From IMG/VR virus record IMGVR_UViG_3300037258_001185, positions 20,252-84,251 of that record: a stretch of 64,000 bases of DNA. One strand, 5' to 3'. A program made the translations under genes and the position numbers. The number at the start of each line of letters is the position of its first letter. Position 1 is the stretch's first letter. The DNA is from a virus. This document shows positions 1 to 30,671 of this stretch, piece by piece. Under the pieces are notes generated by a model. That model was not told the DNA's origin and ran no database searches. It was given only the letters and a program-made list of their open reading frames with translations.

Positions 1-14
1 CTTACGAGCCGATC

Positions 15-1415
15 GTGCTCGCCTACAAGCCGGGCGGCACGCGGACGATGCAGGTCGATGAATGTCGAGTCGAGGGTGTGGTGCCCTCGACCACGCAGGG
101 ACAAGCTATTTCGGCGGGCGTCATCTACGGCAATGATCAACGCACGCTCCGACAATTAAATGGGCATAACGCCGGCCGCTGGCCCTCCAATGTCGCCACG
201 GACGGCAGCGACGAAGTGCTCGCGGCGTTCCCGCAGAGCGCCGGGCAGCAGGGCGACGTGCGCGGCAGCGAGCCGAGCGCCACGGGCGATAACGGCATCT
301 ACGGCCATTTTGACCGCGTGCCATTCAACAAGCGTGTCGGCGAGGCGTCTGCAGAGCGGCGTTACACCGATGCCGGTTCCTCTGACTCCGCGATGCTGCC
401 CGGCGCGCGGCGCGGTGACGCTGGCTCCGCCGCTCGATTCTTCTTTTCGGCACAGCCAGCCCCGGCCCCATGCGATCTTTGCGGGTGGCCGCGTGACGGA
501 TTTACAGGGACAATGGCCGAATGCAATGCACCTGTATCCAGCGCGGCCAGCACTTCATCGCAACCGGCCATAAATCCGAAGCCGCCCGCTTCTGTTCCAG
601 GCGATGTTCCGGGCTATTTACTGCTCGGCGACGGGGACACGAGCCGAGCGTCGAGCGCCCCTGCGAGCAATGCGGGAAGCCATTCATCGCCCCACCATCC
701 GACCACGCCAAGTTCTGCTCCGTTGCCTGCCGAGGTTTGGCCGCTGTCAAAGATCGTCCAAAATGTGGAGTCTGCGGCGCATCTGTGCGGCTCATGCGCA
801 ACCGCTATTGCTCAAAGTCTTGCAGCGTCAAGGCTCGGCCTCGCCCCGGAGTTACCACCCTTTCCGGCGTCTATATCCGAAACATCAAGGCAAATCCTGA
901 CCCGCAGCCTTGTGCTATATGTGGCGGGCCGGGAAAGCACAGACACCATCCTGACTACGCCGAGCTTGAGCGAATTGTTTGGCTCTGTGTTCCATGCCAT
1001 CGCCGAGAACATCAACTCGGAAAGAAACGTGGGAAAGGTGAATATCGGGTCCGGCCAGAAACGATTCCATTTCTCAAGTAAGGCCCAAAAATCTGATCGT
1101 TGGGGCAGCCGCCACCCGACAATTAAACCGGTCGAGTTGATGAAGTGGCTGGTGAAATTGGTTTGCCCCGAAAATGGGACGCTGCTTGATCCGTTTGCCG
1201 GCAGCGGCACGACGGGCGTGGCCGCCCTTGCCACCGGCCGCAATGCGATCCTGATCGAACAGCAGGCCGCTTACGTCGCCGACATTCACGCGCGCCTCGA
1301 CCACTACCGCGGCGAGGGGCGCCATTCCCTCGCCGTCAAGAACAGGTCGCGCGGCGCCCAGCCGGCGGAAGACGGCGACCTGTTCTCATGCGCAACCAAA
1401 GAGGATGCCGCATGA
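15..1415 (+). CDS. DNA N4/N6 methyltransferase, C-terminal part (5' end outside window), with a ~200-aa insertion
   Basis: HPTIKPVELMKWLV and LLDPFAGSGTTGVAA motifs; SAARFFFSA...RFHFSSKAQKSDR split by a Ser/Pro/Ala-rich insert. Confidence 0.85.
   Translation: MLAYKPGGTRTMQVDECRVEGVVPSTTQGQAISAGVIYGNDQRTLRQLNGHNAGRWPSNVATDGSDEVLAAFPQSAGQQGDVRGSEPSATGDNGIYGHFDRVPFNKRVGEASAERRYTDAGSSDSAMLPGARRGDAGSAARFFFSAQPAPAPCDLCGWPRDGFTGTMAECNAPVSSAASTSSQPAINPKPPASVPGDVPGYLLLGDGDTSRASSAPASNAGSHSSPHHPTTPSSAPLPAEVWPLSKIVQNVESAAHLCGSCATAIAQSLAASRLGLAPELPPFPASISETSRQILTRSLVLYVAGRESTDTILTTPSLSELFGSVFHAIAENINSERNVGKVNIGSGQKRFHFSSKAQKSDRWGSRHPTIKPVELMKWLVKLVCPENGTLLDPFAGSGTTGVAALATGRNAILIEQQAAYVADIHARLDHYRGEGRHSLAVKNRSRGAQPAEDGDLFSCATKEDAA
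521..1081 (+). CDS. Zinc-finger HNH endonuclease nested in another frame of the methyltransferase
   Basis: Repeated CxxC...FCSxxC fingers, then CAICG...HRHHPDY...WLCVPCHRREH; AGGGA ~10 nt before the ATG. Confidence 0.75.
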   Translation: MQCTCIQRGQHFIATGHKSEAARFCSRRCSGLFTARRRGHEPSVERPCEQCGKPFIAPPSDHAKFCSVACRGLAAVKDRPKCGVCGASVRLMRNRYCSKSCSVKARPRPGVTTLSGVYIRNIKANPDPQPCAICGGPGKHRHHPDYAELERIVWLCVPCHRREHQLGKKRGKGEYRVRPETIPFLK

Positions 1416-1880
1416 GCGCCGTCGCATTGCCCACCTACCTGCGGCAACGGCTCGCCATCGAATTGCCGCCATATCTACAAGGCCCTCTCGACAGGTTCCT
1501 TTTGGATTTGGCGCAGCAGGCCTTTGAAAACGGGAGGAAAGCGGGGGAGAAAGAAGCCTTCGAGCGTCTGACGGGGCACCGCGACCTGAAGCCGACGATC
1601 GGTGCCATCCAGCGCATCGTGGCTGAGGATTTCGCGCTGCCGCTAATCGACATGACGTCGGACCGACAGTCGCGGAACGTCGCGCGCCCGAGGCAAGTTG
1701 CCATCTTCCTGTGCCGCCAATACACTGATTTCAGCCTGAAGGTCATCGGCAAACACTTCGGCGGAAGAGACCATACGACTGTCAGTCACGCCATTTCCAC
1801 CGTTAACAGACTGGCGAAATCCGATCTGCAATTTGCCGATAGGATCGCGCGGATACGGTCCGCCGTGGAGTCTGCCTTTA

Positions 1881-1888
<8 letters not shown>
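1412..1888 (+). CDS. DnaA C-terminal (domain IV) HTH protein
   Basis: ARPRQVAIFLCRQYTDFSLKVIGKHFGGRDHTTVSHA is the DnaA domain IV signature; ATGA overlap with upstream stop. Confidence 0.85.
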
Positions 1889-2876
<988 letters not shown>

Positions 2877-3315
2877 GGGCTGGGAAATCCAGGTCGGGCT
2901 GTATCACCGCCTGCTGAACGATATTCCGCGCGACCTTCTCGCCGAAGGCATGTACCTGGCGCTGCGCGACGGCAAGTGGTTTCCCAAGCCGGCGGAAATT
3001 CGCGAGCCGATCAGAAGCGTCCTCGCGCGCCGGCAACTCACCGCGAAACGCCTTGATCTGGCGCTCAGCCGCGCTCGCCGGGAGAGCAGGAGTCAACCCA
3101 CGCGGCGGCCGAGCGAGGAGGAGAAGCGCGAGGTGGAAGCGATCATCGCGACGCTGTGCGCCAGATCGCCGCGCCACGAACGGCCGCGCGAATCCGAGCG
3201 GATGACAGGCGCCGAGCGCGAGCGTGTTGCCGCGGAGACCAAGAGTTTTCGTTTGCCGGGAGCGGATGATCCCGGCGTCAAAAAATGGCTGCGGGCCATG
3301 GGAGAGGAGTGAGCA

Positions 3316-3813
3316 ATGGCGGGTTCGATCAACAAGGTTATCCTGCTCGGCAACGTCGGTAAGGATCCGGAAATCAGGTCGACACAGGACGGACGCCGTA
3401 TCGCGAACTTCTCGATCGCGACATCGGAGACGTGGAAAGACCGCGCCTCCGGCGAGCGCAAGGAGCGCACGACCTGGCACAACATCGTGGTGTTCAACGA
3501 ACATCTCGTGCCGATCGTCGAGCAGTACGTCAAGAAGGGGTCGAAGCTCTACGTCGAGGGCGCGATGCAGACCCGCAAGTGGACCGACAACCAGGGCCAG
3601 GACCGCTACACGACCGAGGTCGTTCTGGCGCAATACCGCGGCGAGATCGCGCTGCTCGGCGACAGCCACAGCAACCGCCCGCCCGCCGCCGGCAGCGCGG
3701 ACGACTATGGTCAGGAATCCGCTCGTCCGGGTTACAGCGCCAGGCACGGCCTCGGCGCCGGCGTTCCACAGAGCGGGTCCGGAAGCGATCTCGACGACGA
3801 CATCCCATTTTGA
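3316..3813 (+). CDS. ssb: Single-stranded DNA-binding protein
   Basis: MAGSINKVILLGNVGKDPEIR N-terminus and DLDDDIPF C-terminus. Confidence 0.97.
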   Translation: MAGSINKVILLGNVGKDPEIRSTQDGRRIANFSIATSETWKDRASGERKERTTWHNIVVFNEHLVPIVEQYVKKGSKLYVEGAMQTRKWTDNQGQDRYTTEVVLAQYRGEIALLGDSHSNRPPAAGSADDYGQESARPGYSARHGLGAGVPQSGSGSDLDDDIPF

Positions 3814-3992
3814 AGCTGATCATCTGCAACGGGCGCGAACTCGAGGTGCGAGACCTGGGTCCACCGCTTTTGCGGCTTCGCGCCGGAGCCGTGCCCATCA
3901 AGATCAACGGTCACTTGGTTGTCGAAGACGACGAGGCGCGCCGCCAGATAGCGGCGCTGCTGGCGACGGGCCTGTATCAGCGCGAGTGACCG

Positions 3993-4241
3993 ATGCTGGC
4001 CGATGACACGATGATCGACGCGGCGCTTTGCCGGGCGGCGCGCGGGCTGCTCGACTGGTCACAGGATCAGCTCGCCGAGGCGGCGCAGGTCTCCCGCGGC
4101 ACGATCCTCAGCTTCGAGCGCGGCCTGTCGTTGCCGTGGCGGGTCAATAGGCTGGCGATCGAAGCTGCATTCGCCGCGGCGGGGATACGATTCGTTAAAT
4201 CCGCAGACGGAGCAGGGTGCATCCTGGCCGGCCGTCCTTAA
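3993..4241 (+). CDS. XRE-family HTH regulator
   Basis: RAARGLLDWSQDQLAEAAQVSRGTILSFERG. Confidence 0.85.
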   Translation: MLADDTMIDAALCRAARGLLDWSQDQLAEAAQVSRGTILSFERGLSLPWRVNRLAIEAAFAAAGIRFVKSADGAGCILAGRP

Positions 4242-4399
4242 AAGAAGCGCAAAATGCGCACCTTGTACCTTGGATTTGGCAAAAGGTGCGCCGCCGATGA
4301 AGTTAAGGCGATTTTTGTTTCATAGTATTCCCAAGCAATAAACAATGTGCCAGCGGTCCGCCGGGGGGCGGAACGCCTTGACATGCGGCGCGGGGGCGC

Positions 4400-5377
4400 A
4401 TGAGGAAGAAACGCGGGAGACCGGCGGCGATCGACCGTCCGCATTATTCCAGCGGACGCGTCGAGAACCCGGCACATCAGGATATCGCCTCGCCATTTGC
4501 CGCAGCGCGCCGCGTCGCGCTCGCCGACCCGCGAGCCGCCGGCACCGCGGTAAACAAAGCGGAGGCCGCCGCCGGCGCCGCCGGCAAGGCATTCGGTCCG
4601 GAAGACGCAGCTCGCGCCATCGCGGGTATCGCGGTCGATGCCGACCGCGCGAGCACCGCCATCGGCCGCTACTTCCTGTGGTCGTTGCATCACGGCACCA
4701 AACACCGCCTGACCGAAGCGCAATACCTGGCCGGCTGCCGATACGCCAGCCAGCACGGCATGGCCTGGGCGGGCTTGCATGATGACCTCAAACGGGTCAG
4801 CGGCGACGTCCTGAGGGACATCGTGGTGCCGCGGCGACACCCGCCTGCGGCTCTCGGCAACCACGTCGCGACCACGCCGGCGACAGACCTTAACCCCCGG
4901 CCGAAACCCAGCCCGGACGAGCTGATCGAGTATCGGCAGCGGCAGTGGCATCGGTACATCGCGGCCAGGGAAACGCTGCTCCAGATCGGCTTGGCCGTGA
5001 CCCTGGCCGTCGAGGATCTCGTCATCGAGGGACACGATCCATGGTGGCTCAGTCCGTCGTCCTGCCGTCTTGGGGAGACCGAGGCGCGGCACCGCGCGGC
5101 CGAGGTGTTTCATCAGCGCTCGATGCTGGTCGACGGCCTGACGGCGCTGGCCCAACTCTTCGGCACCGATAAAGAGGTCGCCAGCAGAGAGGGCGGCGAT
5201 CCATCGGGCGCATCCGACACGCCGCGCGCTCCGCCCCCTCAGGCGACGCGACGAGCGCAGGCCAGGCTGCCGATCATTCTCACCAGGGACGACGCAAACC
5301 TTAGCGCCGGCGCCATCGTGGCATCGGTGAACCGCCTGAAGCAGCAGCGCAATAGCGTGGGGGGTTGCGATGGATAA
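4400..5377 (+). CDS. Hypothetical protein (possible late-gene regulator)
   Basis: Long ORF after an AT-rich intergenic region; function guessed from position only. Confidence 0.5.
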   Translation: MRKKRGRPAAIDRPHYSSGRVENPAHQDIASPFAAARRVALADPRAAGTAVNKAEAAAGAAGKAFGPEDAARAIAGIAVDADRASTAIGRYFLWSLHHGTKHRLTEAQYLAGCRYASQHGMAWAGLHDDLKRVSGDVLRDIVVPRRHPPAALGNHVATTPATDLNPRPKPSPDELIEYRQRQWHRYIAARETLLQIGLAVTLAVEDLVIEGHDPWWLSPSSCRLGETEARHRAAEVFHQRSMLVDGLTALAQLFGTDKEVASREGGDPSGASDTPRAPPPQATRRAQARLPIILTRDDANLSAGAIVASVNRLKQQRNSVGGCDG

Positions 5378-5579
5378 CTTGAACAGGGCCGGGGCTACCG
5401 AGTTGGCCGGTCGCATTTGCGATTACTGGATCAGCAACGGCTTTGCCGGCATCAGCGCCATTGTCGTGCCGATCGGAAACGTCGGCGGCGAACAAGTGTA
5501 TGGCGTCCGCAGCAACATCGGCGGCAGCGGCTTCCCGCCGCGCCGGACGACCGCGACCAGCACGCGGGAGGCGGCATGA
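5370..5579 (+). CDS. Hypothetical protein
   Basis: Overlapping start/stop with neighbours. Confidence 0.55.
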   Translation: MDNLNRAGATELAGRICDYWISNGFAGISAIVVPIGNVGGEQVYGVRSNIGGSGFPPRRTTATSTREAA

Positions 5580-5854
5580 GAAACTTCATCGAGCTGGACG
5601 GCGTGAGCGCCATCGAGCGGGATATTCTGATTGCCTCGCGATGGGCGGCAGCGATGGCCATGAAGGCGATCTCCGCCTCGGCGGTCTGGGGCGCCGATTT
5701 TAACGCGGACACCCACCGGGGGCGCCCCTCGCCGGCAATCGTGCGCATCAACGCTCCGGGTTACCCCAAGGTTGTCCGCGACCGCCTCGGGCGCGAGTTC
5801 GTGGTTCACCGCGGCGTCGACCGCGCCACGTTCCGGGGGATGCAGTCCAGATGA
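5576..5854 (+). CDS. Hypothetical protein
   Basis: GGAGG RBS and ATGA overlap. Confidence 0.5.
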   Translation: MRNFIELDGVSAIERDILIASRWAAAMAMKAISASAVWGADFNADTHRGRPSPAIVRINAPGYPKVVRDRLGREFVVHRGVDRATFRGMQSR

Positions 5855-6444
5855 TACTGGCAGCAGATCATCCAGCCGCCAGCACGGCCCGCATCCATGG
5901 CAACGGCTTCCTGCAGATCGACCTGCTGGACGGATCGCGGCTGCATCTTTGGGATGACCGGCTGCCGAGGCAGGCGGTCAACTCGGCGATCCACAACCAC
6001 CGCTTCGGCTTCATCAGCGAGGTGCTGCGCGGCACGATCATCAATACCGAGCTCGCGTGGGTGCCGGCCGCTTCCAACGGCGATGGTCGCGCGACGCACG
6101 CGCTCTACCGGACCGAGCGCCGTGCCGGCACCGAGGACACGCACCTCGTCGACACCGGCCACCGCGGCACCTTCGTCGCGACCAAATCCCATATCGTGCA
6201 CGCCGGCAATCGCTACCGGTTCCCGGCGGCTCGTTTCCACACGACGCACCACCTCGGCCTGACGGTAACGCGGCTGCACAAGCGCCACATCGACGAGACA
6301 GTGGCGGTGATCGCGGCCCTGCGTCTCGGCGAGCAGCCCGACAACGAGTTCAATCGCGACACAGCCCCGATCCCCGGATGGGTGTGGAGCGTCGTGGCGC
6401 CCTACCTGACTGCCGCGCCAGCCGAACTGCCGGTGGCTGCCTGA
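5851..6444 (+). CDS. Cupin-like (double-stranded beta-helix) protein
   Basis: HGNGFLQ...IHNHRFGFISEVLRG...FH metal-binding pattern. Confidence 0.55.
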   Translation: MILAADHPAASTARIHGNGFLQIDLLDGSRLHLWDDRLPRQAVNSAIHNHRFGFISEVLRGTIINTELAWVPAASNGDGRATHALYRTERRAGTEDTHLVDTGHRGTFVATKSHIVHAGNRYRFPAARFHTTHHLGLTVTRLHKRHIDETVAVIAALRLGEQPDNEFNRDTAPIPGWVWSVVAPYLTAAPAELPVAA

Positions 6445-14502: not shown

Positions 14503-15275
14503 GCCTTCGCCACCTCCCAGAGACCCGGTCCGCGACGGCAGAATGCGGCACTCAATTGCAGGGTCTGCCGGATCTTCGCCTTGTAGTGGCGATTGCGGGC
14601 CGCCTTCGGGTGCGTGGCGACGGCGCGATACAGGTCCGCAAGCGGCACTGGACCATCGCTCCCCTCGAGCAGTTTCTCGACGATCTCGCGCCACGACGGC
14701 AACTCGATCACGGCGCCGAGGAAGGATCTCGGGATGCGGAGCGGCACGAATTGACCGGCGAGCAGGCAGCACGCCAGGATGTCAGCATCGGACTTGCCAT
14801 AGGCGATCAACACCGAGGGGGCGCCGCTATTGTGCGGCGCCCGACTGCCGTCCGGAAAATGGAAGTTGATCCGGCCTCGCAGGAATAGCATGGCGGCGGC
14901 GCGCTCCCAGGCATGGGAAAAGAACGCCTCCGTCTCGGTGCGCGCGAAGATGAACGCGGTCCCCTGGTTATGCTGCCCCATGCGGCCGAGCCATCGGCCG
15001 ATTTCGGCCGCGCTGTATGGCGGGTTCAGCCAGACACGGCCGAACCACGGCAGCATCAGGCCATTGTCGCGTCTCGTGTAGTGCCGCTGCGCGGTCGACC
15101 ACGGCCGGCTCTCCGGGCTGCACGGGTCCAGGTCGAACGACTCGGCGCCACCCAGCGCGCCAATGATCTCGGGGGGCGTCAGCCACTCCACCGTGCCGGC
15201 TGCGGGGCTGTGATGAGAGCCCATGCCGTGAGCGATCGACGCCGCGTTGCCCGCGAACAGGTTTCCTTGGCCCAT
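14499..15275 (-). CDS. Phage Dam-like DNA N6-adenine methyltransferase
   Basis: EWLTPPEII, FDLDPC, VWLNPPY, ARTET, FLRGRINF. Confidence 0.88.
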   Translation of the reverse strand: MGQGNLFAGNAASIAHGMGSHHSPAAGTVEWLTPPEIIGALGGAESFDLDPCSPESRPWSTAQRHYTRRDNGLMLPWFGRVWLNPPYSAAEIGRWLGRMGQHNQGTAFIFARTETEAFFSHAWERAAAMLFLRGRINFHFPDGSRAPHNSGAPSVLIAYGKSDADILACCLLAGQFVPLRIPRSFLGAVIELPSWREIVEKLLEGSDGPVPLADLYRAVATHPKAARNRHYKAKIRQTLQLSAAFCRRGPGLWEVAKA

Positions 15276-15278
15276 CGC

Positions 15279-17573
15279 TCAATTCCCCATGATGGCGGTG
15301 ACGAGGGCGCAGGCCGTATTGACGGGCACCGCGTTGCCGATCTGCTTGGTGATCTCGGTCTTCGTCCCGACGAACTCGTATTCGATCTCTCCTTCGCTGA
15401 AGCCCATCGCCCTGGCCAACTCCTTCGGATCGAGCATGCGGAAGCGGATGTCATAGCGGCGCTCGCCGGCGGCGCCCTCGACCAGTTGCACGCGGCCGGC
15501 GGCGCAGATCGTCGGCGCCGGGTCGTCGATGCTGTGCACGCGCGGCGCCTGCCCTGGCCGCTCGCCAAAGGCGGCGGCGATGAAGGCCAGCTCGCCGCGC
15601 GGCGCGGCGGTGATCGTCGGCAGCGGATCATCTGGCGAGCGGACGCGGCCCTTGTCGCCGCCGTGCGTGACCGGCATGACCAGCGCGAACTCGCCGCCCT
15701 TGGCCGTCGTCATGGTCGGCAGCGGGTCGTCGATCGCGCGCGGGCCCGGGCCGCCGGTGCTGTTCGTGACCGGGACGACGAGGCCGAAGCGTGCCTTGGT
15801 CGTGACGGTCGGCAACGGCGTCTCGGTCGAGCCGCAGGTCTCGCCCGAGCCCGAGCCGTAATAAGGGGCGATGAGGGCGTGGGCGCCGCCGTGGCCGCCC
15901 GTAGTGATCGTTGGGACCGGCTGATCAACGCTGCGCGGCGCGCCGCAAGAGGCTTGCGAAAGCACGAACGGCTGGACCACGGCGATTTGCGATTTCGTGG
16001 TCAGCGCCGGGACTGGATCGCCGATCGCCGATGGCACATTGCCATCGCGCATTGCCGAGACGAACGGCTCGACGATGCCGAACTTCCCTCCTCCGGCGTG
16101 GATGGTCTGCAGCGGGTCGTCCAGGCTGCGGCACCGCCGGCTATCGGGATCGCGCTCATGCGCTGGGTTGCCATGCGCCAAGGTCGCGATAAACGGCTCG
16201 ACGACCAGCGGCTCGCAGAGAAACTGGCCGCCGCCGGTTGTCGTGGTGATCCCGCCGACCGGATCATCGACGCTCTTCGGCGTGTTGTTGGTCCGGTTGC
16301 CGCAGACGAACGGATCGAGGCGCCATTCCTCGCCGCAGCGCGGGCATTCTGGCGACGACAAGCCTCCTGGCTCACTTCCGGCGTACCTATCGGTGAACAT
16401 CTCGCCGCAGGCCTGACAACGCCATGCGGTCGTCGGCTCCACCATATAGCCGGCGCCGCGGCAGTCAGCCGTCGGCATCGGCTCGTCGAGCGGATGCGCA
16501 CGGGTCGCGCCGTTGTCGCCATGCCGGTTCAGGATGAACGGCTCGACGACGGCCGGCCGCGCGCACCCGGGGCGCCGCTCATTCGAGGCTCCCCCCGTGG
16601 TAATCGTCATCAACGGGTCTTCGACCGAGCGCGCCGCACCGCTGCTGCTGTTCGACAGCGTGAACGGCATGGGCACAGCCAGCGCGATATGCGTGCCGCC
16701 GGCGCAGATCGCCGGGACCGGCTCGTCGATGCTTTGCGCGTCCATGTGGTTACGCAGGATGACGAGGAACGGATCAGGCCACTTGAATTTGACGGCGCCG
16801 GCGTAGATCCGCGCCAGCGTCTTCGGGCTGAGCGGCCGCTTGCGGTCGAAGATCGACTTGCCGGAGAGCGACCAGTCGATGATTTCTCGGGCCGCACGCC
16901 ATTTCTCGGTCGCATGGCCGAGCAGGTCGCCGACGGCGCCCTTGCGGCTGTGGGTCGGCGTCGGCCAGACGATGCGTTTGCCGTCCGACCGCGCCATCAG
17001 GAAGAAACGCTCGCGGGTCGTCGCGTCGCCAAAGTCGGCAGCGTTCAGGACGCGCCACTCAACCTTGAACCCGGCGCCGCGCAGCGCGTTGACCCAGGCG
17101 AGGAAATACTCGCCCTCATGGCGCTTTGACGGCCGGCCAGTGCGCAGGTTGACCCTCCCCCAGCGCACAAATTCCGGGACGTTCTCGACGATCAGTCGCT
17201 TGATCCTGAGCTCGGTGCACCAGTGGATGATCGCCCACGGGTCCATGCGCTGCTGGTCGTTGATCGGCTTGCCGCCGCGGGCGCGCGAGTGATAGGTGCA
17301 GCTCGGGCTCGCCATCAGCAGGTCGAGCTTGCCCTCGGGGACCAGTTCGATCGGCTTGGCGACATTGACGTCCTGGCAATAGTGACGCGCCTCCGGGTGA
17401 TTGCGGCTGTGGGATTCAATGGCGAGCGGCCAATGGTTGACGGCACAAAGGTCCATCCGGTAGCCAAGGCCGAGCAGAGCCCGGCGCGCGCCGGTCGAAC
17501 TGCCGCCAGCTCCGCAAAACAGATCGGCGACTAGCGCGGTGCGGGTCGGGGCCGGGAGCGTGTCATGCGGCAT
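15279..17573 (-). CDS. DNA (cytosine-5) methyltransferase with a repeat-expanded variable region
   Basis: DLFCGAGG, ASPSC, IVENV, RERFF, QIGNAVP. Confidence 0.92.
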   Translation of the reverse strand: MPHDTLPAPTRTALVADLFCGAGGSSTGARRALLGLGYRMDLCAVNHWPLAIESHSRNHPEARHYCQDVNVAKPIELVPEGKLDLLMASPSCTYHSRARGGKPINDQQRMDPWAIIHWCTELRIKRLIVENVPEFVRWGRVNLRTGRPSKRHEGEYFLAWVNALRGAGFKVEWRVLNAADFGDATTRERFFLMARSDGKRIVWPTPTHSRKGAVGDLLGHATEKWRAAREIIDWSLSGKSIFDRKRPLSPKTLARIYAGAVKFKWPDPFLVILRNHMDAQSIDEPVPAICAGGTHIALAVPMPFTLSNSSSGAARSVEDPLMTITTGGASNERRPGCARPAVVEPFILNRHGDNGATRAHPLDEPMPTADCRGAGYMVEPTTAWRCQACGEMFTDRYAGSEPGGLSSPECPRCGEEWRLDPFVCGNRTNNTPKSVDDPVGGITTTTGGGQFLCEPLVVEPFIATLAHGNPAHERDPDSRRCRSLDDPLQTIHAGGGKFGIVEPFVSAMRDGNVPSAIGDPVPALTTKSQIAVVQPFVLSQASCGAPRSVDQPVPTITTGGHGGAHALIAPYYGSGSGETCGSTETPLPTVTTKARFGLVVPVTNSTGGPGPRAIDDPLPTMTTAKGGEFALVMPVTHGGDKGRVRSPDDPLPTITAAPRGELAFIAAAFGERPGQAPRVHSIDDPAPTICAAGRVQLVEGAAGERRYDIRFRMLDPKELARAMGFSEGEIEYEFVGTKTEITKQIGNAVPVNTACALVTAIMGN

Positions 17574-19830: not shown

Positions 19831-20606
19831 ATCTTGGTGACAAGCCTGAGTTGCGGTGGCTCCCCGTCGACTGCCTGTCGGTCGACAACCGCTATCAGCG
19901 AACGCTCAACACCCGCGCCGGCAGGAAGCTCGTCGCCGAGATCGTCGCGAATTTCGCATGGTCCGCCTTCCAGGCGATCCTCGCGACGCCAGCCGGAGCC
20001 GGTTGGCTGATCGTTGATGGACAGCATCGCGTTGAGGCGGCTCGCCAGTTGGGTATCGCGGAGGTGCCGGCCGTTGTCGTCACCTCGGTCAGCGTCGTCG
20101 AGCAGGCCCTGGCCTTCGTGACCGCAAACAAACAGCGCGTCGCCGTCAACAACTACGCGCTGCATCACGCGGCCGTGGTCGGCGGCGATCCGCTTGCGAC
20201 CGAGGTCGACCGGGTGTGCCGCGAGGCCGGCGTCTCGGTGCCCCGCTATCCCATACCGGAGATCAACCTTGTGCCGGGCCAGACGCTCGCGCTCAGCACA
20301 ATCACCAGCCTCGTCAAAAATGACGCGGCGCTTGCGACTCTAACGCTGCGCTGTCTCGCCGAAGCCTACCGCCGCACTAAGGGAGCGCTCCGCGCGCCGA
20401 CGATCGCCGCCGCGGCTCTGGTGCTGGAAAGGCGCCCAAAGCCAGACCGGCCGGCCTCGGCCGGCATCATCACCAGTTTTCTCAGCCAGCGCACCTCAGC
20501 CGATCTGGCTATCGAGGCCCTGAAGCATCGCGGTAAGTACGGGGGCACGATGAAGGAAGCCATCGCCGGCATGCTGCGCCGCCGCGTCGAGGCGCCGCGC
20601 CGGTGA
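19827..20606 (+). CDS. ParB/Srx-like domain protein
   Basis: VDNRYQR...IVDGQHRVEAA. Confidence 0.75.
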   Translation: MNLGDKPELRWLPVDCLSVDNRYQRTLNTRAGRKLVAEIVANFAWSAFQAILATPAGAGWLIVDGQHRVEAARQLGIAEVPAVVVTSVSVVEQALAFVTANKQRVAVNNYALHHAAVVGGDPLATEVDRVCREAGVSVPRYPIPEINLVPGQTLALSTITSLVKNDAALATLTLRCLAEAYRRTKGALRAPTIAAAALVLERRPKPDRPASAGIITSFLSQRTSADLAIEALKHRGKYGGTMKEAIAGMLRRRVEAPRR

Positions 20607-22145: not shown

Positions 22146-22319
22146 GAGGGCAACGCCGATGGCCTGGTTTCTCCTGGCGATTTTGGTCCTCCGTGGCTTC
22201 GGGCTGCTGGTCGAAGGCGTCGGGAAAAACCTGGTCGCCGAGCGCGCCGCGGCTTTGATTGGCGCGGCATGCTTCGGCGCCTGCGCCGGATGGCTCTACT
22301 TCGCAAGCGGGCTGTTCGC

Positions 22320-22925
22320 ATGAGGGGCGCCGACCTGATCGTGCCGCGCTCAACCACCGCGCTGATCCCCTACGTCGGGAACAGCCGGACGCACAGCCCG
22401 GAGCAGGTGCAGCAGATCGCGGGCTCGATCCGCGAATTCGGCTTCACCAATCCGGTGCTGATCGACCAGGACAACGGCATCATCGCCGGGCACGGCCGCG
22501 TCCTGGCCGCTCAGTTGCTTGGCCTGTCTGAAGTGCCCTGCATCGTGCTCAGCCACCTCTCGCCGGCGCAGCGGCGCGCCTACGTCATCGCCGACAACAA
22601 GCTGGCGCTCAACGCCGGCTGGGACGAGAAAATGCTCGCCCTCGAGCTCGACGAGCTGAAGGCGGGCGGCTTCGACCTCGACCTCACCGGGTTCGGCGAG
22701 GTCGAGCGCGCCGATCTGGAGTTGCGGCTGAATGATCCTGCGCCGTCGGGCGGCAATGACGCGCCGCCCGACGCGGAGCCGATGGAGTTGCGCTGGGGCA
22801 ATACCCGGCTGCCGATCACGGCGACCGAGAAACTGGCGCTGACCGGCCGGCTCGATCAGCACTTGAAGGATTTCGGCGCGCCCTACGGCTTCGTTCGGGA
22901 AGGGCTGGGGCTCGGCGCCGAATAG
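22320..22925 (+). CDS. ParB/Srx N-terminal domain protein, paralog 1
   Basis: LIPYVGNSRTHS...SIREFGFTNPVLID...IIAGHGRVLAA...IADNKL. Confidence 0.88.
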   Translation: MRGADLIVPRSTTALIPYVGNSRTHSPEQVQQIAGSIREFGFTNPVLIDQDNGIIAGHGRVLAAQLLGLSEVPCIVLSHLSPAQRRAYVIADNKLALNAGWDEKMLALELDELKAGGFDLDLTGFGEVERADLELRLNDPAPSGGNDAPPDAEPMELRWGNTRLPITATEKLALTGRLDQHLKDFGAPYGFVREGLGLGAE

Positions 22926-25885: not shown

Positions 25886-26485
25886 ATGAACATCCCAGAC
25901 AGGATCGTTCAGCGGCCGACGGCGGCGCTGATTCCCTACGCCCGCAACAGCCGGACCCACAGCGAGCGCCAGGTCGCGCAGATCGCCGCCAGCATCCGGG
26001 AGTTCGGCTTTACCAACCCCGTGCTGATCGACGCCGAGGACGGCATCATCGCCGGGCACGGCCGCGTCCTGGCGGCGCACACGCTCGGCGTGATCGAGGT
26101 GCCGTGCATCGTGCTGGCGCACCTGACTGAGCTGCAAAAGCGCGCCTATGTGATCGCCGACAACCGCCTCGCCGAGAGCGCCGGCTGGGATGACGCGGCG
26201 CTGTCGGCGGAACTGGCGCGACTTGAGGAAGACGGCTTCAACCTCGGCCTGACCGGCTTCGATCCGATCGAGCTACGCGGCCTGATGGGCAGCAAGGATC
26301 TGCTCGACCCAACCGACGGCCGGGCCGAACACGGCGCCACCTTGCCGCGGCTGTTCATCGACGACCGCGCCGTCCTGATAACCTCGGAGGAACGCGACAT
26401 GCTGCAGGATGCCTACGACCGGCACATGGAGACCTACGGCGTCACCGACGGCTTTGTCGCGACGCTGCTGAGCAGCGGCCGATGA
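25886..26485 (+). CDS. ParB/Srx N-terminal domain protein, paralog 2
   Basis: LIPYARNSRTHS...SIREFGFTNPVLID...IIAGHGRVLAA. Confidence 0.88.
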   Translation: MNIPDRIVQRPTAALIPYARNSRTHSERQVAQIAASIREFGFTNPVLIDAEDGIIAGHGRVLAAHTLGVIEVPCIVLAHLTELQKRAYVIADNRLAESAGWDDAALSAELARLEEDGFNLGLTGFDPIELRGLMGSKDLLDPTDGRAEHGATLPRLFIDDRAVLITSEERDMLQDAYDRHMETYGVTDGFVATLLSSGR

Positions 26486-26692
26486 CCGCCGACTATCGCG
26501 GCCTGTCATACGAGCAGGCGTCTCGCGAAGGGCTGAGGCTGGTCCGACAGGCGGCCGAGACTGGCGCTTGGCACAAGATCCTCGAACCGCTCACCGCGCT
26601 GCGCGAAATCATGGCGCTCATGGTGCGTCGGCCGCCGTCACAGGAAGACGACGGCGCTTGATGAGTTGCCCACATACCTGGCGAGGGTCGCG

Positions 26693-28105
26693 ATGATCTT
26701 CCACCTCAACTACCCGCTCGAAGGCCTGCGCGGCGCCGACTACAACCCGCGCCACATCGGCGAGACCGAGCTCGCCCGGCTGCGTCATTCGCTCGAACGC
26801 CTCAGCGTCTGCAAGCCGATCATCGTGCACGGCAAGACGATCGTCGCCGGCCACCAGCGCACGCGGTCGTTGCGGGCGCTCGGCCGGACGCACGCGCCGG
26901 CGATCGTCTTGGAGACGATCACGGCGACCGACGAAATCCGCTTCAACCAGCTCCACAACGGCACCGATTTTGACGCCGGTGACGAGAACTGCACGGTCGG
27001 GCCGGCTGGCTGCGAGCCGCTCCATTTCGAGGATGTGGCCTATCGCGCCATCCAGGGCAACCTGCGCGGCCGGCTCGCGCCGGTACGGGGCGAAATCTGC
27101 CGCCTCGTCGAGCGCTACGGCAATTGGGGTGCCGCGACCGCGACGATGTCCGGCAAGGTCATCCATGCCGCGCAGTTCGCGCTGGCCTGCCGCCTGACCG
27201 GGCGGCCGTGCCGGGTCTACCGGATCCCCGACGAGATGGAGGAGGAGGCGGCAGCGCTGCTCGGCGCGAGCTACGGCAAGTTCTCCTACGAGCACCTGCC
27301 GCGCGCGACCTACATCCAGACCCGCGCCCAGATGTTCCGGCTACGGGAGAACGGGTCGCCGAAGCTCAACCTGTCGGCGCTCTACGAGACGCGCGTCAAG
27401 CCGGAATTGGCGCCCTCTGAGCGCATTCTCGATTTCGGCTGCGGCGAGGGCGATTACGTGCAGGCGCTATGCGCACGCGGCCACCCGATATTCGGGATCG
27501 AGTTCTTTTTCCGCGATGGCCAGAGCATCGACGCGACAACGGTGCATCGGATGATCGACGCCGCGACGGCCGACATGGAACGCAACGGCCTGTTCGATGT
27601 CGTCCTGGCCGACAGCGTGATGAACAGCATCGACTCGAAGCTGGCCGAGGCGGATGTCCTGACCTGCCTCAACGCGTTCTGCCGGCCGGGCGGCCGCATC
27701 TACTTCTCGGGCCGGCCGATGTATCGCGTCGAGAAGTCGCTGCGGGCGACCTTGCGGGCCGATCAGCGGCGCGGCATCGAGTTCCTCGACGCCGACGGTT
27801 TCACCGGCCTCTACCGGGAAGGCAACTGGTTCTACCAGAAATTCCACTCCGACGAGGAGGCGCGCGCGCTTGGTGCCCGCTTCGTCGGCGAGCGGGCGAG
27901 CTTCAGCGGGGGCAAAAACTCCTGGCAGGTCGGCGGCGTCAAGACCATCGAGTTGCCGGCAGAGGAATGCCGCGCGTCGATCGCCCGCGAGTTCGACCTT
28001 ATCTGGCCGGCAGGACGCCGCGTTGGCCGAGCGGATCAAATGCTCGCCGCATGGGATCGAGCCCGTAATATGCCACTCCGAACCGCCAATTCCGACAGGT
28101 CGTGA
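26693..28105 (+). CDS. ParB/Srx domain fused to a class I SAM-dependent methyltransferase
   Basis: ADYNPRHI...IVAGHQR; ILDFGCGEG; DSVMNS. Confidence 0.75.
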   Translation: MIFHLNYPLEGLRGADYNPRHIGETELARLRHSLERLSVCKPIIVHGKTIVAGHQRTRSLRALGRTHAPAIVLETITATDEIRFNQLHNGTDFDAGDENCTVGPAGCEPLHFEDVAYRAIQGNLRGRLAPVRGEICRLVERYGNWGAATATMSGKVIHAAQFALACRLTGRPCRVYRIPDEMEEEAAALLGASYGKFSYEHLPRATYIQTRAQMFRLRENGSPKLNLSALYETRVKPELAPSERILDFGCGEGDYVQALCARGHPIFGIEFFFRDGQSIDATTVHRMIDAATADMERNGLFDVVLADSVMNSIDSKLAEADVLTCLNAFCRPGGRIYFSGRPMYRVEKSLRATLRADQRRGIEFLDADGFTGLYREGNWFYQKFHSDEEARALGARFVGERASFSGGKNSWQVGGVKTIELPAEECRASIAREFDLIWPAGRRVGRADQMLAAWDRARNMPLRTANSDRS

Positions 28106-28873: not shown

Positions 28874-29341
28874 ATGACCAAGAGACACGTACCGAGCGAC
28901 CGGACGCGGGCGACGGTCGAGGCGCTTGCCGCCTACGGCATCCCCGAGGAACACATCGCGGCTGACATCGGCGTCTCGCCGCCGACGCTGCGCAAGCACT
29001 ACCGCGCCGAACTCGATACCGCCGCGACCCGCGCCAACGCCAAGGTCGGCGAGTTTCTGTTCTCGATGGCCACCGGCCGCAACGGGCCGCTTGCTCGCGA
29101 CAAGGATGGCTCGGTCATCCGCGACGCCAACGGCGTTCCAATCCGGGAGGCCGATTACCGCGCCTCGACGACAGCAGCGATCTTCTGGGCGAAGACTCGG
29201 ATGCTTTGGCGCGAGGTCTCCGGTGTAAATCTGAGTGTCGAAGATGATTCGTCCGGCGCGCGAGAACTGCTCACTCGCGCAATCGATCGCCTCGCTCCCG
29301 CCGGAGGAGAGGAGACGGCTACTACGGCGCCTGAAGCCTGA
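28874..29341 (+). CDS. terS: Terminase small subunit
   Basis: HTH (IAADIGVSPPTLRKHY), AAIFWAKTR; precedes TerL. Confidence 0.75.
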   Translation: MTKRHVPSDRTRATVEALAAYGIPEEHIAADIGVSPPTLRKHYRAELDTAATRANAKVGEFLFSMATGRNGPLARDKDGSVIRDANGVPIREADYRASTTAAIFWAKTRMLWREVSGVNLSVEDDSSGARELLTRAIDRLAPAGGEETATTAPEA

Positions 29342-30671
29342 AGCCGTCAAGGAACTGCTCTACGATTGGAAGTTCTGGGCGCGGCCCAACCAGCTCGCGC
29401 CGCCGGGCGACTGGAGAACCTGGCTGGTGCTCGCGGGGCGCGGCTTCGGCAAGACCCGCACAGGCGCCGAGTTGGTCCGCGATCGCGTGGCGGCCGGCTA
29501 TAAGCGCATCGCGCTCGTCGGCGCGACGGCGGCCGACACCCGCGACGTCATGGTCGAGGGCGAGAGCGGTATCCTGGCGATTTCTCCGGCCAACAACCGG
29601 CCGCGCTACGTTTCAACGGTACGGCGCCTGATGTGGCCCAACGGGGCAATCGCCACAACCTATTCGGCAGAAGAGCCGGAGCGCCTTCGCGGTCCGCAGC
29701 ACGATTTCGCCTGGTGCGACGAGATTGCCGCGTGGCGATATCCGGAAGCGTGGGACATGCTGATGTTCGGGCTGCGCCTCGGGCGCGACCCGCGGTCCGT
29801 CGTGACGACAACGCCGAAGCCGATCAAGCTGGTGCGGGATCTGCTGGCCGACCCGACGACAAAAATCACTCGCGGTTCGACCTACGACAACCGCGGCAAC
29901 CTGGCGCCGGCGTTCTTCACCCAGATCATCCGCAAATACGAAGGCACGCGCCTCGGGCGACAGGAAATCGAGGCCGAGTTGCTCGCCGACACGCCGGGCG
30001 CGCTGTGGACCATGAAGCGGATCGATGAGTTGCGCGTCAATCGTGGCGCCTATCCCGAGCTCACGCGGATCGTCGTCGCGATCGACCCGGCCGTTTCAAC
30101 CGGCGAGGATTCGGACGAAACGGGCATCGTGGTGGCCGGCAAGAGCGCCGCCGGCCACGGCTATGTGCTGCATGACGGCTCCGGTCGGATGATGCCGACC
30201 GAGTGGGCGCGCGCGGCAATCAAGGCCTATCGGGACCATCACGCCGACCGTGTTGTCGCGGAGGTCAATCAAGGCGGCGATATGGTCGAGACGACCGTGC
30301 GCATGGTCGACCCCAATGTTTCCTATACCGCCGTCCACGCCAGCCGGGGAAAGGTCGTCCGGGCCGAGCCGGTCGCGGCGCTCTACGAGCAGGGCAGAAT
30401 CCATCACGTCGGCGCGTTCCCGCAACTCGAAGATCAGATGTGCGCGTTCACCAGCGATTTCGACAGGAAATCGTCGGGGTCGCCGGATCGCGTTGACGCG
30501 CTGGTCTGGGCATTCACCGAATTGCTGGTCGACCAGGCGGCGGGCGCTGGCGTCGCTGGCTTTACCCGCCGCCTTGCCGACGAGACCCGGGCTGCCGCCC
30601 AGAAACCGCTAGCGACAAAGGTTATTCCGGCCCGCGGCTCGAAGGAATGGCAAGAGCTGTACGGGGAGTGA
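29235..30671 (+). CDS. terL: Terminase large subunit (start uncertain)
   Basis: LAGRGFGKTR Walker A, WCDE Walker B, VAIDP, DRVDA. Confidence 0.95.
   Translation: MSKMIRPARENCSLAQSIASLPPEERRRLLRRLKPEAVKELLYDWKFWARPNQLAPPGDWRTWLVLAGRGFGKTRTGAELVRDRVAAGYKRIALVGATAADTRDVMVEGESGILAISPANNRPRYVSTVRRLMWPNGAIATTYSAEEPERLRGPQHDFAWCDEIAAWRYPEAWDMLMFGLRLGRDPRSVVTTTPKPIKLVRDLLADPTTKITRGSTYDNRGNLAPAFFTQIIRKYEGTRLGRQEIEAELLADTPGALWTMKRIDELRVNRGAYPELTRIVVAIDPAVSTGEDSDETGIVVAGKSAAGHGYVLHDGSGRMMPTEWARAAIKAYRDHHADRVVAEVNQGGDMVETTVRMVDPNVSYTAVHASRGKVVRAEPVAALYEQGRIHHVGAFPQLEDQMCAFTSDFDRKSSGSPDRVDALVWAFTELLVDQAAGAGVAGFTRRLADETRAAAQKPLATKVIPARGSKEWQELYGE

Follow-up and report, generated by a model that had tools for sequence, protein, structure and literature searches.

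A nested HNH endonuclease gene within a phage DNA methyltransferase gene as a probable splice-free homing element

The window analyzed here, a stretch of 64,000 nucleotides of viral DNA (positions 20,252 to 84,251 of IMG/VR record IMGVR_UViG_3300037258_001185, a contig of 84,251 bases), begins within a gene for a DNA methyltransferase, and this gene carries in its interior a second gene, read in another frame, for a putative zinc-ribbon HNH endonuclease. The contig contains integrase, terminase, portal, tape-measure, tail and endolysin genes and several methylases, and by this gene content it is a temperate phage or prophage. A megablast search with window positions 1-6000 against phage records gave no match. 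Frame 3, that of the methyltransferase, is free of stop codons from the first base of the window to 1415; the gene probably starts at an ATG 390 bases upstream of the window, and the product has 601 residues. The protein matches Pfam family PF01555 with 67.7 bits (cut-off 26.7). Its DPPY catalytic motif is found at residues 21-24 and its FAGSGTT motif for S-adenosylmethionine (SAM) at residues 529-535, i.e., in the order DPPY then FxGxG. A protein search yielded 2918 homologues at E≤1e-10 among 8000 candidates scored; the 120 listed are mostly 340-450 residues long, with a minority of 520 or more. In addition, 362 Mycobacterium phage records match the methyltransferase of the window. The features of the locus, including two open reading frames (ORFs) that share the same DNA, are as follows.

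1..1415, plus strand: beta-class N6/N4 DNA methyltransferase (PF01555), part of a single uninterrupted ORF of 601 codons.
435..452, plus strand: left copy of the split motif, RFFFSA, in the native methyltransferase fold; it aligns with GSAARFFFSA of insert-free homologues.
453..1079, plus strand: insert of 627 bp, whose 209 codons keep the phase of the host frame and contain no host-frame stop; delimited by alignment with insert-free homologues.
453..520, plus strand: 5' leader of the insert, coding in the host frame only, QPAPAPCDLCGWPRDGFTGTMA; it holds the first CxxC at 471-482.
506..510, plus strand: Shine-Dalgarno-like AGGGA, separated from the HNH ATG by 10 bases.
521..1081, plus strand: HNH endonuclease ORF of 186 residues (phrog_1271) in frame 2, one frame back from the host, with an ATG start and 96 homologous loci; three zinc-ribbon modules precede the HNH core.
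786..797, plus strand: second host-frame CxxC (CGSC), which overlaps the VRLMR codons of the HNH frame, with Val as GTG in 63/72 sequences.
911..1012, plus strand: putative HNH catalytic core, CAICGGPGKHRHHPDY...WLCVPCHRREH, based on invariant residues and structural matches.
1062..1079, plus strand: RFHFSS, the right-hand copy of the split motif, in the last six codons of the insert, recognized by alignment and overlapped by the C-terminus of the HNH protein (IPFLK).
1079..1081, plus strand: TAA stop of the HNH ORF; its T is the final base of the insert, and its two A's begin the Lys codon of the host KA(S) motif.
1080..1415, plus strand: C-terminal, SAM-binding half of the methyltransferase, KAQKSDRWGSRHPTIKP...FAGSGTT, with PF01555 at residues 362-427 of the window translation and modeled with a predicted local distance difference test score (pLDDT) of 81-97.

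The boundaries of the insert follow from comparison with insert-free methyltransferases. The homologues P0005-P0013, whose flanks are 63-72% identical to those of the window, read GSAARFFFSA-KA..DRWGSRHPT, and a block of 209 codons that is present in P0001-P0003 and in the window is absent from all of them. Because these codons are missing from the close insert-free relatives, the insert was placed at 453-1079, where it splits the conserved RFFFSA/KA motif between ARFFFSA (432-452) and KAQKSDR (from 1080). An earlier sequence-only reading of this DNA had seen a methyltransferase motif split at 440-1085 and had proposed this very alignment, and its limits were essentially right. It had also described the insert as less GC-rich and as having cgattc at both ends. 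Both observations hold, since the guanine-plus-cytosine (GC) content is 0.589 in the insert and 0.648 in the flanks, with the strongest dip at 750-1200, and the hexamer stands at 435-440 and again at 1062-1067. The hexamers lie in a longer quasi-repeat: the host frame reads ARFFFSAQ at 432-455 and KRFHFSSKA at 1059-1085, and the last six codons of the insert (RFHFSS) echo the six codons before it (RFFFSA), with agreement at 10 of 18 bases. A copy of the form (R/S)(F/L)xY was also seen among the end-of-insert alignment rows listed, though not in every row. The inserted peptide starts with Q and ends with S-S, and there is no His-Asn at its C-terminal junction.

The nested ORF was complete, as the sequence-only reading had claimed when it described a whole zinc-finger HNH protein with its own AGGGA and stop. 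Its frame is closed upstream by a TGA at 494-496, 25 bases before the ATG. The zinc-ribbon modules follow the pattern C..CG...(Y/F)CS..C in three copies, and the ORF matches the PHROG profile phrog_1271 'HNH endonuclease' with E=5e-18. An alignment of 80 HNH sequences, with identities to the protein of the window of 41-77% and in most cases of only 41-55%, contains 18 invariant columns that include a CxxC/HH/CxxCH/H core. C131, C134, H142, H143, W154, C156, C159, H160, and H164 are invariant in all 80, and we take these residues to form a catalytic His pair and a C-terminal metal-binding His framed by two CxxC pairs. An HNH ORF spanning the match is kept in 82 distinct loci, and truly interrupted frames were found only in L012, L103/L105 (one element), and L106, in each case in the N-terminal zinc ribbon. 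The picture is thus of an intact frame, and not of one without purifying selection, the outcome that would have spoken against the sequence-only reading. The start codon is ATG in 81 of 87 elements, and 42 of these 81 have a Shine-Dalgarno-like motif at -18 to -3, in several cases a strong one (e.g., AAGGAG and AGGAGG). Of 85 elements in which this could be read, 54 have the HNH stop overlapping the host Lys codon, and the Lys itself (K491) is invariant in 90 methyltransferases. A -1 frameshift that would fuse the N-terminal part of the methylase to the HNH protein was also considered; inspection by eye found no X XXY YYZ heptamer between 494-496 and the ATG at 521, and such a frameshift is unnecessary given the conserved Met start with a Shine-Dalgarno motif.

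An open host frame across the nested gene could arise by chance. When the synonymous codons of the HNH ORF of the window were shuffled, the host frame remained open in 7.9% of cases, so that the window alone was only suggestive, and relatives were therefore collected. They were gathered by HNH similarity only and hence blind to the host frame. The first HNH searches gave 15 viral and 2 genome loci, and a metagenome scan with the HNH alignment gave 597 pattern matches, 115 of them encoding a relative; the 80 best of these were retained, for a total of 97 loci. Merging identical HNH stretches left 87 distinct elements at the RFF site, 79 of them with an intact match. Some loci are cut by contig ends and lack one flank, so that the denominators vary (77, 85, 86). 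L100 was excluded from alignment A3, and the codon-entropy and stop-expectation tests excluded loci whose tblastn HNH match contains a stop.

In all of the first 17 loci, the HNH gene lies between the N- and C-terminal parts of a methyltransferase and one frame back from both, and both flanks belong to one ORF in 16 of the 16 loci that show both. None of the 97 loci, whose GC content ranges from 0.33 to 0.65, has a host-frame stop across the HNH match, while the third sense frame contains 1-22 stops in every one of them. The sequence-only reading had named frequent host-frame stops in homologous inserts as the sign of a chance opening, and none occurs. The 79 non-identical elements comprise 11,126 codons with 0 host-frame stops, where 126.6 are expected from permuting the synonymous codons of each ORF and 193.7 from the codon usage of the methyltransferase flanks of the same locus (n=68 with enough flank). 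Between one and three N-terminal zinc ribbons occur per HNH protein, and in every version the host frame is open. On this comparison of sequences, the open host frame is not a product of chance, and the comparative result is decisive.

Selection appears to extend beyond the avoidance of stops. At conserved four-fold degenerate codons, the third-position entropy is 1.25 bits in the HNH overlap (35 columns) and 1.86 bits in the flank (24 columns; Mann-Whitney p=1e-9), the flank being the single-coding C-terminal methyltransferase part of the same loci. The constraint is concentrated in particular columns. Three HNH Pro codons are CCT in 73/75, 68/72, and 65/78 sequences, which gives Leu (CTN) in the host frame, and one HNH Ser codon is TCT in 34/34. 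One HNH Val codon is GTG in 63 of 72 sequences, AT-rich loci included, which gives a host-frame Cys (TGC) that any other Val codon would lose. Other four-fold columns are nearly free (1.6-1.85 bits), and the favored wobble choices are unrelated to stop codons. Such site-specific constraint is predicted if the host frame is translated through the insert, and is not predicted by ribosomal bypassing or splicing. These results point to selection on the host-frame peptide, as judged from synonymous sites. Of 77 non-identical elements, 58 have the leader CxxC no more than 25 residues past RFF, and the inner CxxC is present in 63 of 87.

The methyltransferase was modeled with AlphaFold as the 601-residue enzyme, from 90 aligned sequences of which 60 bear the insert. 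DPPY and FxGxG are almost invariant across these 90 sequences, and the flanks of insert-bearing enzymes are as conserved as those of insert-free ones. The parts of the model are listed below.

Methyltransferase core: pLDDT above 90, with the insert outside the core.
Residues 271-280: first RFF copy, pLDDT 82.
Residues 281-290: leader with the first CxxC, pLDDT 76.
Residues 298-367: unstructured stretch, pLDDT about 30.
Residues 379-389 and 394-408: helices around the second CxxC, pLDDT 63-77.
Residues 481-490: second RFF copy, pLDDT 48.

By this model, the methyltransferase looks intact despite the insert. The sequence-only reading had regarded the host-frame insert as low-information Ser/Ala/Pro sequence; this description fits its first part and fails for the second half, which is a conserved, partly helical segment. 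The two frames may be co-adapted, such that the inserted peptide is a selected and folded 'spacer' domain, a Leu-cored helical hairpin that in most cases is pinned by two Cys pairs, and we regard the chances of this as evenly balanced. If so, the spacer domain would allow a conserved motif of the methyltransferase to accommodate some 200 additional residues.

The element is unevenly distributed. It occurs in phages from soil, aquatic, and other metagenomes. In a FastTree phylogeny of 297 flank columns from 90 methylases, in which the insert-free rows had been chosen as the best matches of the window, the insert state changes at least 6 times, and strongly supported branches force 2 changes. 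The well-supported clade of the window contains 30 insert-free and 5 insert-bearing rows, the latter scattered over at least 3 places, and flank identity is correlated with insert identity (r=0.57). At the RFF site, the insert-free methylase of L016 (1386-3930) has an unusual stretch of 15 residues, ARFF-QCCPFTEEDIPAFAY-YAKAS, which resembles both ends of the insert and is possibly a deletion scar, on sequence resemblance. A free-standing protein of 313 residues directly downstream of this methylase carries the same zinc-ribbon modules, five in number, but differs in its C-terminal domain. In Lachnospiraceae prophage-like loci (L023-L054 and L062-L065), one zinc-ribbon module of the HNH family lies about 1 kb upstream of a methylase C-terminal part and one frame back from it. 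By their layout these loci could be another nested arrangement, and they were not counted as members.

Taken together, the methyltransferase is probably translated straight through a nested HNH gene that is itself translated separately. The element as a whole is likely a splice-free homing element, that is, an HNH homing-endonuclease gene lying out of frame in a phage DNA methyltransferase gene. One mRNA would then give two proteins. Ribosomes starting at the methyltransferase ATG would read through the insert and produce the enzyme of 601 residues, whose 209 extra residues would form a disordered tether and a small helical module with, in most relatives, two Cys pairs that putatively bind zinc. 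This module would jut from the junction of the target-recognition region and the SAM-binding half. Internal initiation at the ATG at 521 would produce the nuclease of 186 residues, which would cut insert-free alleles at or near the site coding for RFFxxAKA, and repair would copy the cassette in. Both the homing activity and the retention of methylase activity are putative. The proposal of the sequence-only reading, a selfish nuclease whose host gene is spared through dual coding and not through splicing, was supported by each comparative test that was run.

Several points weigh against this interpretation, among them the identity of the nuclease. No Pfam family matched the ORF significantly; HNH (PF01844) remained below threshold (E=5.8; 7.6 bits, cut-off 21.4), and when 16 HNH members were scanned it was not among the 25 families listed of 47 matched. 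A profile of 16 HNH sequences against PDB sequences found eukaryotic zinc fingers only (E≥0.035), and the canonical Asn of the motif, on our reading of the alignment, is not conserved. The structure model of the HNH protein has a pLDDT of 89.4, and Foldseek found nothing for it in the PDB at E≤0.001. As to a beta-beta-alpha-metal fold, VIA-align of residues 109-176 placed HNH nucleases at the top with Z scores of only 3.6-4.4, below the safe level of the tool: Gme 4h9d (Z 4.4, root-mean-square deviation 3.8, 60 aligned residues), GVE2 5h0o (Z 4.2), and McrA 6ghc (Z 3.6), followed by IscB, Cascade-HNH, T5 SciA, Hpy99I, T4 endonuclease VII, and others. The list of predicted structural matches is consistent, but its Z values are too low to stand alone. 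The assignment as HNH, built on the PHROG profile, the motif, and weak fold matches, is thus not watertight.

The copy in the window, moreover, has Arg at residue 8, where its relatives have the second Cys of ribbon 1, and its nuclease may be impaired, as this substitution suggests. In a second soil metagenome, a contig with the same insert junction (covering 147-616) has C>T at 542, which restores Cys at residue 8 and with it the CxxC of ribbon 1, and is silent in the methyltransferase frame (AGC>AGT, Ser). The contigs of two soil DNA runs, one of which covers only 1-126 and 147-616, contained no joints and no insert-free form, and no RNA run was listed among the sequencing runs that contain this stretch. 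Other reservations concern the host frame. The Cys pairs are common yet not universal, the insert is only moderately modeled (pLDDT 30-77), and the 97 loci are related, so that their stop counts are not independent trials. The tree, given how its insert-free rows were chosen, indicates patchiness near the window and not rates. The low wobble entropy could in part reflect a younger ancestor of a horizontally moving cassette, an explanation that the column-to-column heterogeneity of the constraint argues against. Finally, the support for dual coding, though good, comes from the comparison of sequences.

Other explanations of the locus were weighed against dual coding with homing. It is unlikely that the nuclease does not, or no longer does, home and has instead been domesticated as a partner of the methyltransferase, for instance as a nuclease sensitive to methylation that is directed at rival phages or host DNA and inherited together with its protective methylase. 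A nuclease paired with a methyltransferase does recall restriction-modification logic, the element is old and diverse, to judge from the wide range of HNH identities among the 80 sequences, its ORFs are mostly intact, and the correlation of flank and insert identity implies that much of the inheritance is vertical. However, its presence is patchy among close relatives, it is inserted exactly in a conserved coding motif, its boundaries are cassette-like with a flanking repeat, and the same zinc-ribbon modules occur free-standing beside the insert-free methylase of L016. These are hallmarks of homing elements and therefore argue against a domesticated partner.

That the methyltransferase is disabled by the insert, with the frame kept open to avoid polarity on the HNH gene or downstream genes, or because the fusion has a new role, appears very unlikely. 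The insert does lie inside a conserved motif beside the SAM-binding half, and orphan methylases of phages can be dispensable, as argued in a study of a similar element (PMC11855218). Nevertheless, the catalytic motifs are almost invariant in the 60 insert-bearing sequences, the insert has not relaxed the conservation of the flanks, the model retains the core fold with high confidence, and the conserved host-frame Leu and Cys suggest a folded module rather than mere read-through.

More improbable still is an unrecognized self-splicing intron that carries the HNH ORF, in which the mRNA would join RFFFSA to KA and the open frame would be incidental or would guard unspliced transcripts. HNH genes are commonly carried in phage group I introns, and the ends of the insert form a quasi-repeat. 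The same study discusses HNH genes in phage group I introns and flags a similar repeat as a possible guide-sequence feature (PMC11855218). Against an intron, the Rfam search of window positions 1-2000 at E≤10 gave only three unrelated rows at chance level, this absence of a match being no proof, and at the gathering score no match, and hence no group I intron core, was detected in 20 loci. The HNH ORF fills so much of the insert that about 68 bases are left for a ribozyme core. The insert is always a multiple of three and in phase with the host, and an intron gives no reason for the absence of stops in all loci or for the site-specific Leu and Cys wobble constraint. Pfam searches of the whole methylase and of the host-frame insert found no intein or Hint domain, and the insert matched no family; the Rfam and Pfam scans thus agree with the sequence-only reading, which had recognized neither intein ends nor a group I core.

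Translational bypassing as in T4 gene 60, with take-off at CGA-TTC (435-440), landing at CGA-TTC (1062-1067), and 627 bases skipped, has a negligible probability: the hexamers at the two ends are identical and a hop would yield AARF-HFSSKAQ, similar to the insert-free motif, but known bypassing spans about 50 nucleotides and needs a stop after the take-off codon, where this gap has no such stop, and codon constraint and universal stop avoidance in the host frame would be pointless in a skipped stretch. The cryptic intron and the bypass, which the sequence-only reading had kept as fallbacks, thus found no support in our results.

Dual coding with homing can be set beside several known arrangements. 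HNH homing endonucleases of phages are known as intron-encoded (I-HmuI) or free-standing proteins (seg/mob of T4-like phages). The element of the window shares with them a small nuclease with DNA-binding modules, a position in or next to a conserved gene, a patchy distribution, and presumed homing by double-strand breaks. It differs in that those genes are spliced out, intergenic, or gene-splitting, while here the host ORF is co-encoded and neither spliced nor split. A tblastn search of the HNH protein against phage records gave one strong match, LR745208.1, and at E≤5 distant free-standing HNH genes, with no ShiLan-type phage, among the 60 records listed of 305. In two loci, L109 (about 1200-2120) and L095 (about 1-800), a second and unrelated HNH ORF of the type C..CG...LE.HH...N..LC..CH was seen at the RFPANVIL site of the same methylase. 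This one leaves a host-frame stop, and the N-terminal part and the rest of the methylase are in different ORFs, unlike at the RFF site.

Inteins are likewise mobile, co-translated, and inserted in phase in conserved host motifs, but they carry the nuclease in the host frame and excise themselves, whereas the nuclease here lies in another frame and the peptide is presumably retained. The insert-bearing methylases of L007 (1247-3718), L009 (908-3748), and L011 have a further insert of about 300 residues after WVYG, which begins with CLSEDTE and ends with ...GN before SGFPKS. By its motifs, this extra insert looks intein-like, and no Pfam Hint domain was found in it at E≤0.001. Overprinted viral genes also derive two proteins from one stretch in different frames, with reduced synonymous variation; there, a new ORF usually arises in an old gene, whereas here a foreign gene arrives and the host frame is the 'new' one.

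The closest parallel is found in actinobacteriophage methylases, in which a 'ShiLan domain' of 202 residues has a disjunct distribution (Gosselin et al., 2023; PMC9957025). According to a later study, this domain hides an out-of-frame HNH gene of 195 residues, there are no host-frame stops and no detectable intron or intein, and a helical 'hairpin' is predicted to stand off from the enzyme (Arsenault, Gosselin & Gogarten, 2025; PMC11855218). That study also reports a second case, Pacc40, and proposes leaderless GTG starts, and the evidence in its accessible part is computational, consisting of structure prediction and database searches for a handful of mycobacteriophages. The published ShiLan methylase also hosts an intein. 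A methylase/HNH pair is annotated in Mycobacterium phage Applejack (gp54/gp55, PP978873.1) in a 2025 genome announcement (PMC12613952). Our comparison is with Applejack gp54/55, a possible case of the ShiLan domain itself.

The likeness to the ShiLan type is extensive. In both, a phage methylase of the PF01555 type contains an insert of some 200 codons without a host-frame stop, a complete zinc-finger HNH ORF lies in another frame with its stop at the very end of the insert, and a quasi-repeat is shared by the insert start and the downstream flank. They also share the lack of a detectable intron or intein, the patchy distribution, and the predicted helical hairpin away from the enzyme, and the methylase of Applejack belongs to the same family as that of the window. 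In contrast, the insertion site in Applejack is after GFPKS (methylase residues 119-327) and that of the window is in RFFFSA/KA (residues 282-490), and the HNH gene lies one base forward of the host frame in Applejack and one base back in the window. The HNH lineages are also distant (BLASTP E=0.037), with Pfam HNH at 1e-8 for Applejack and E=5.8 for the window. The nucleases of the window lineage start with ATG, with a Shine-Dalgarno-like motif in about half, as opposed to the leaderless GTG proposed in PMC11855218, and its hosts are metagenome phages over the broad GC range given above, as opposed to the published mycobacteriophages. Descent from the published element is not borne out, as the site, frame offset, and HNH protein of Applejack all differ from those of the window. 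The layout itself was thus already published in 2025 (PMC11855218), and by sequence comparison the element of the window is of the same kind, of a separate and widespread lineage, and at a different site. Members of the RFF-site lineage may be within the survey of other phages and prokaryotes in that study, whose accessible part contains no stop-codon statistics, host-frame codon-constraint test, or host-frame Cys pairs.

Other features of the contig were noted in passing. A second N6/N4-type methyltransferase (phrog_67, 9e-63) is encoded upstream (L066:1383-2837, i.e., contig bases 18383-19837) and ends some 20 bases short of the probable start of the insert-bearing methylase, so that the phage carries tandem methylases. 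A C5 cytosine methyltransferase of 764 residues (window 15279-17573, minus strand) matches PF00145 at residues 15-228 only and contains about eight DDP(L/V)PT(I/M)TT-like repeats and a CxxC...CxxC segment. From these repeats it is possibly a multispecific enzyme with repeated target-recognition modules, and the opposite-strand ORF of 738 residues (14913-17129) looks like a GC-rich artefact. Three genes with ParB-like nuclease domains (22269-22922, 25886-26482, and 26666-28102) lie close together ahead of the terminase (29235-30668), and a run of the hexamer GGACAG at 2348-2395 encodes (GQ)n inside a DUF1376/replication-protein gene.

Homing endonuclease genes are thought to persist in essential or useful genes by means of self-splicing introns or inteins, and the family described here represents a third solution, in which the selfish gene occupies one frame and the host frame stays translatable across it. 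If the two frames are indeed co-adapted, splice-free dual-coded insertion would be a third general homing strategy, and a common one. To the published cases the lineage adds a large and compositionally diverse sample, a clear statistical signal of selection against host-frame stops, codon-level evidence of selection on the host-frame peptide, and ordinary nuclease starts with ATG and Shine-Dalgarno motifs. Gene callers report such a locus as one long 'methyltransferase' and overlook the nuclease. Compact and natural, the system also offers a means of testing to what extent a single stretch of DNA can serve two proteins.

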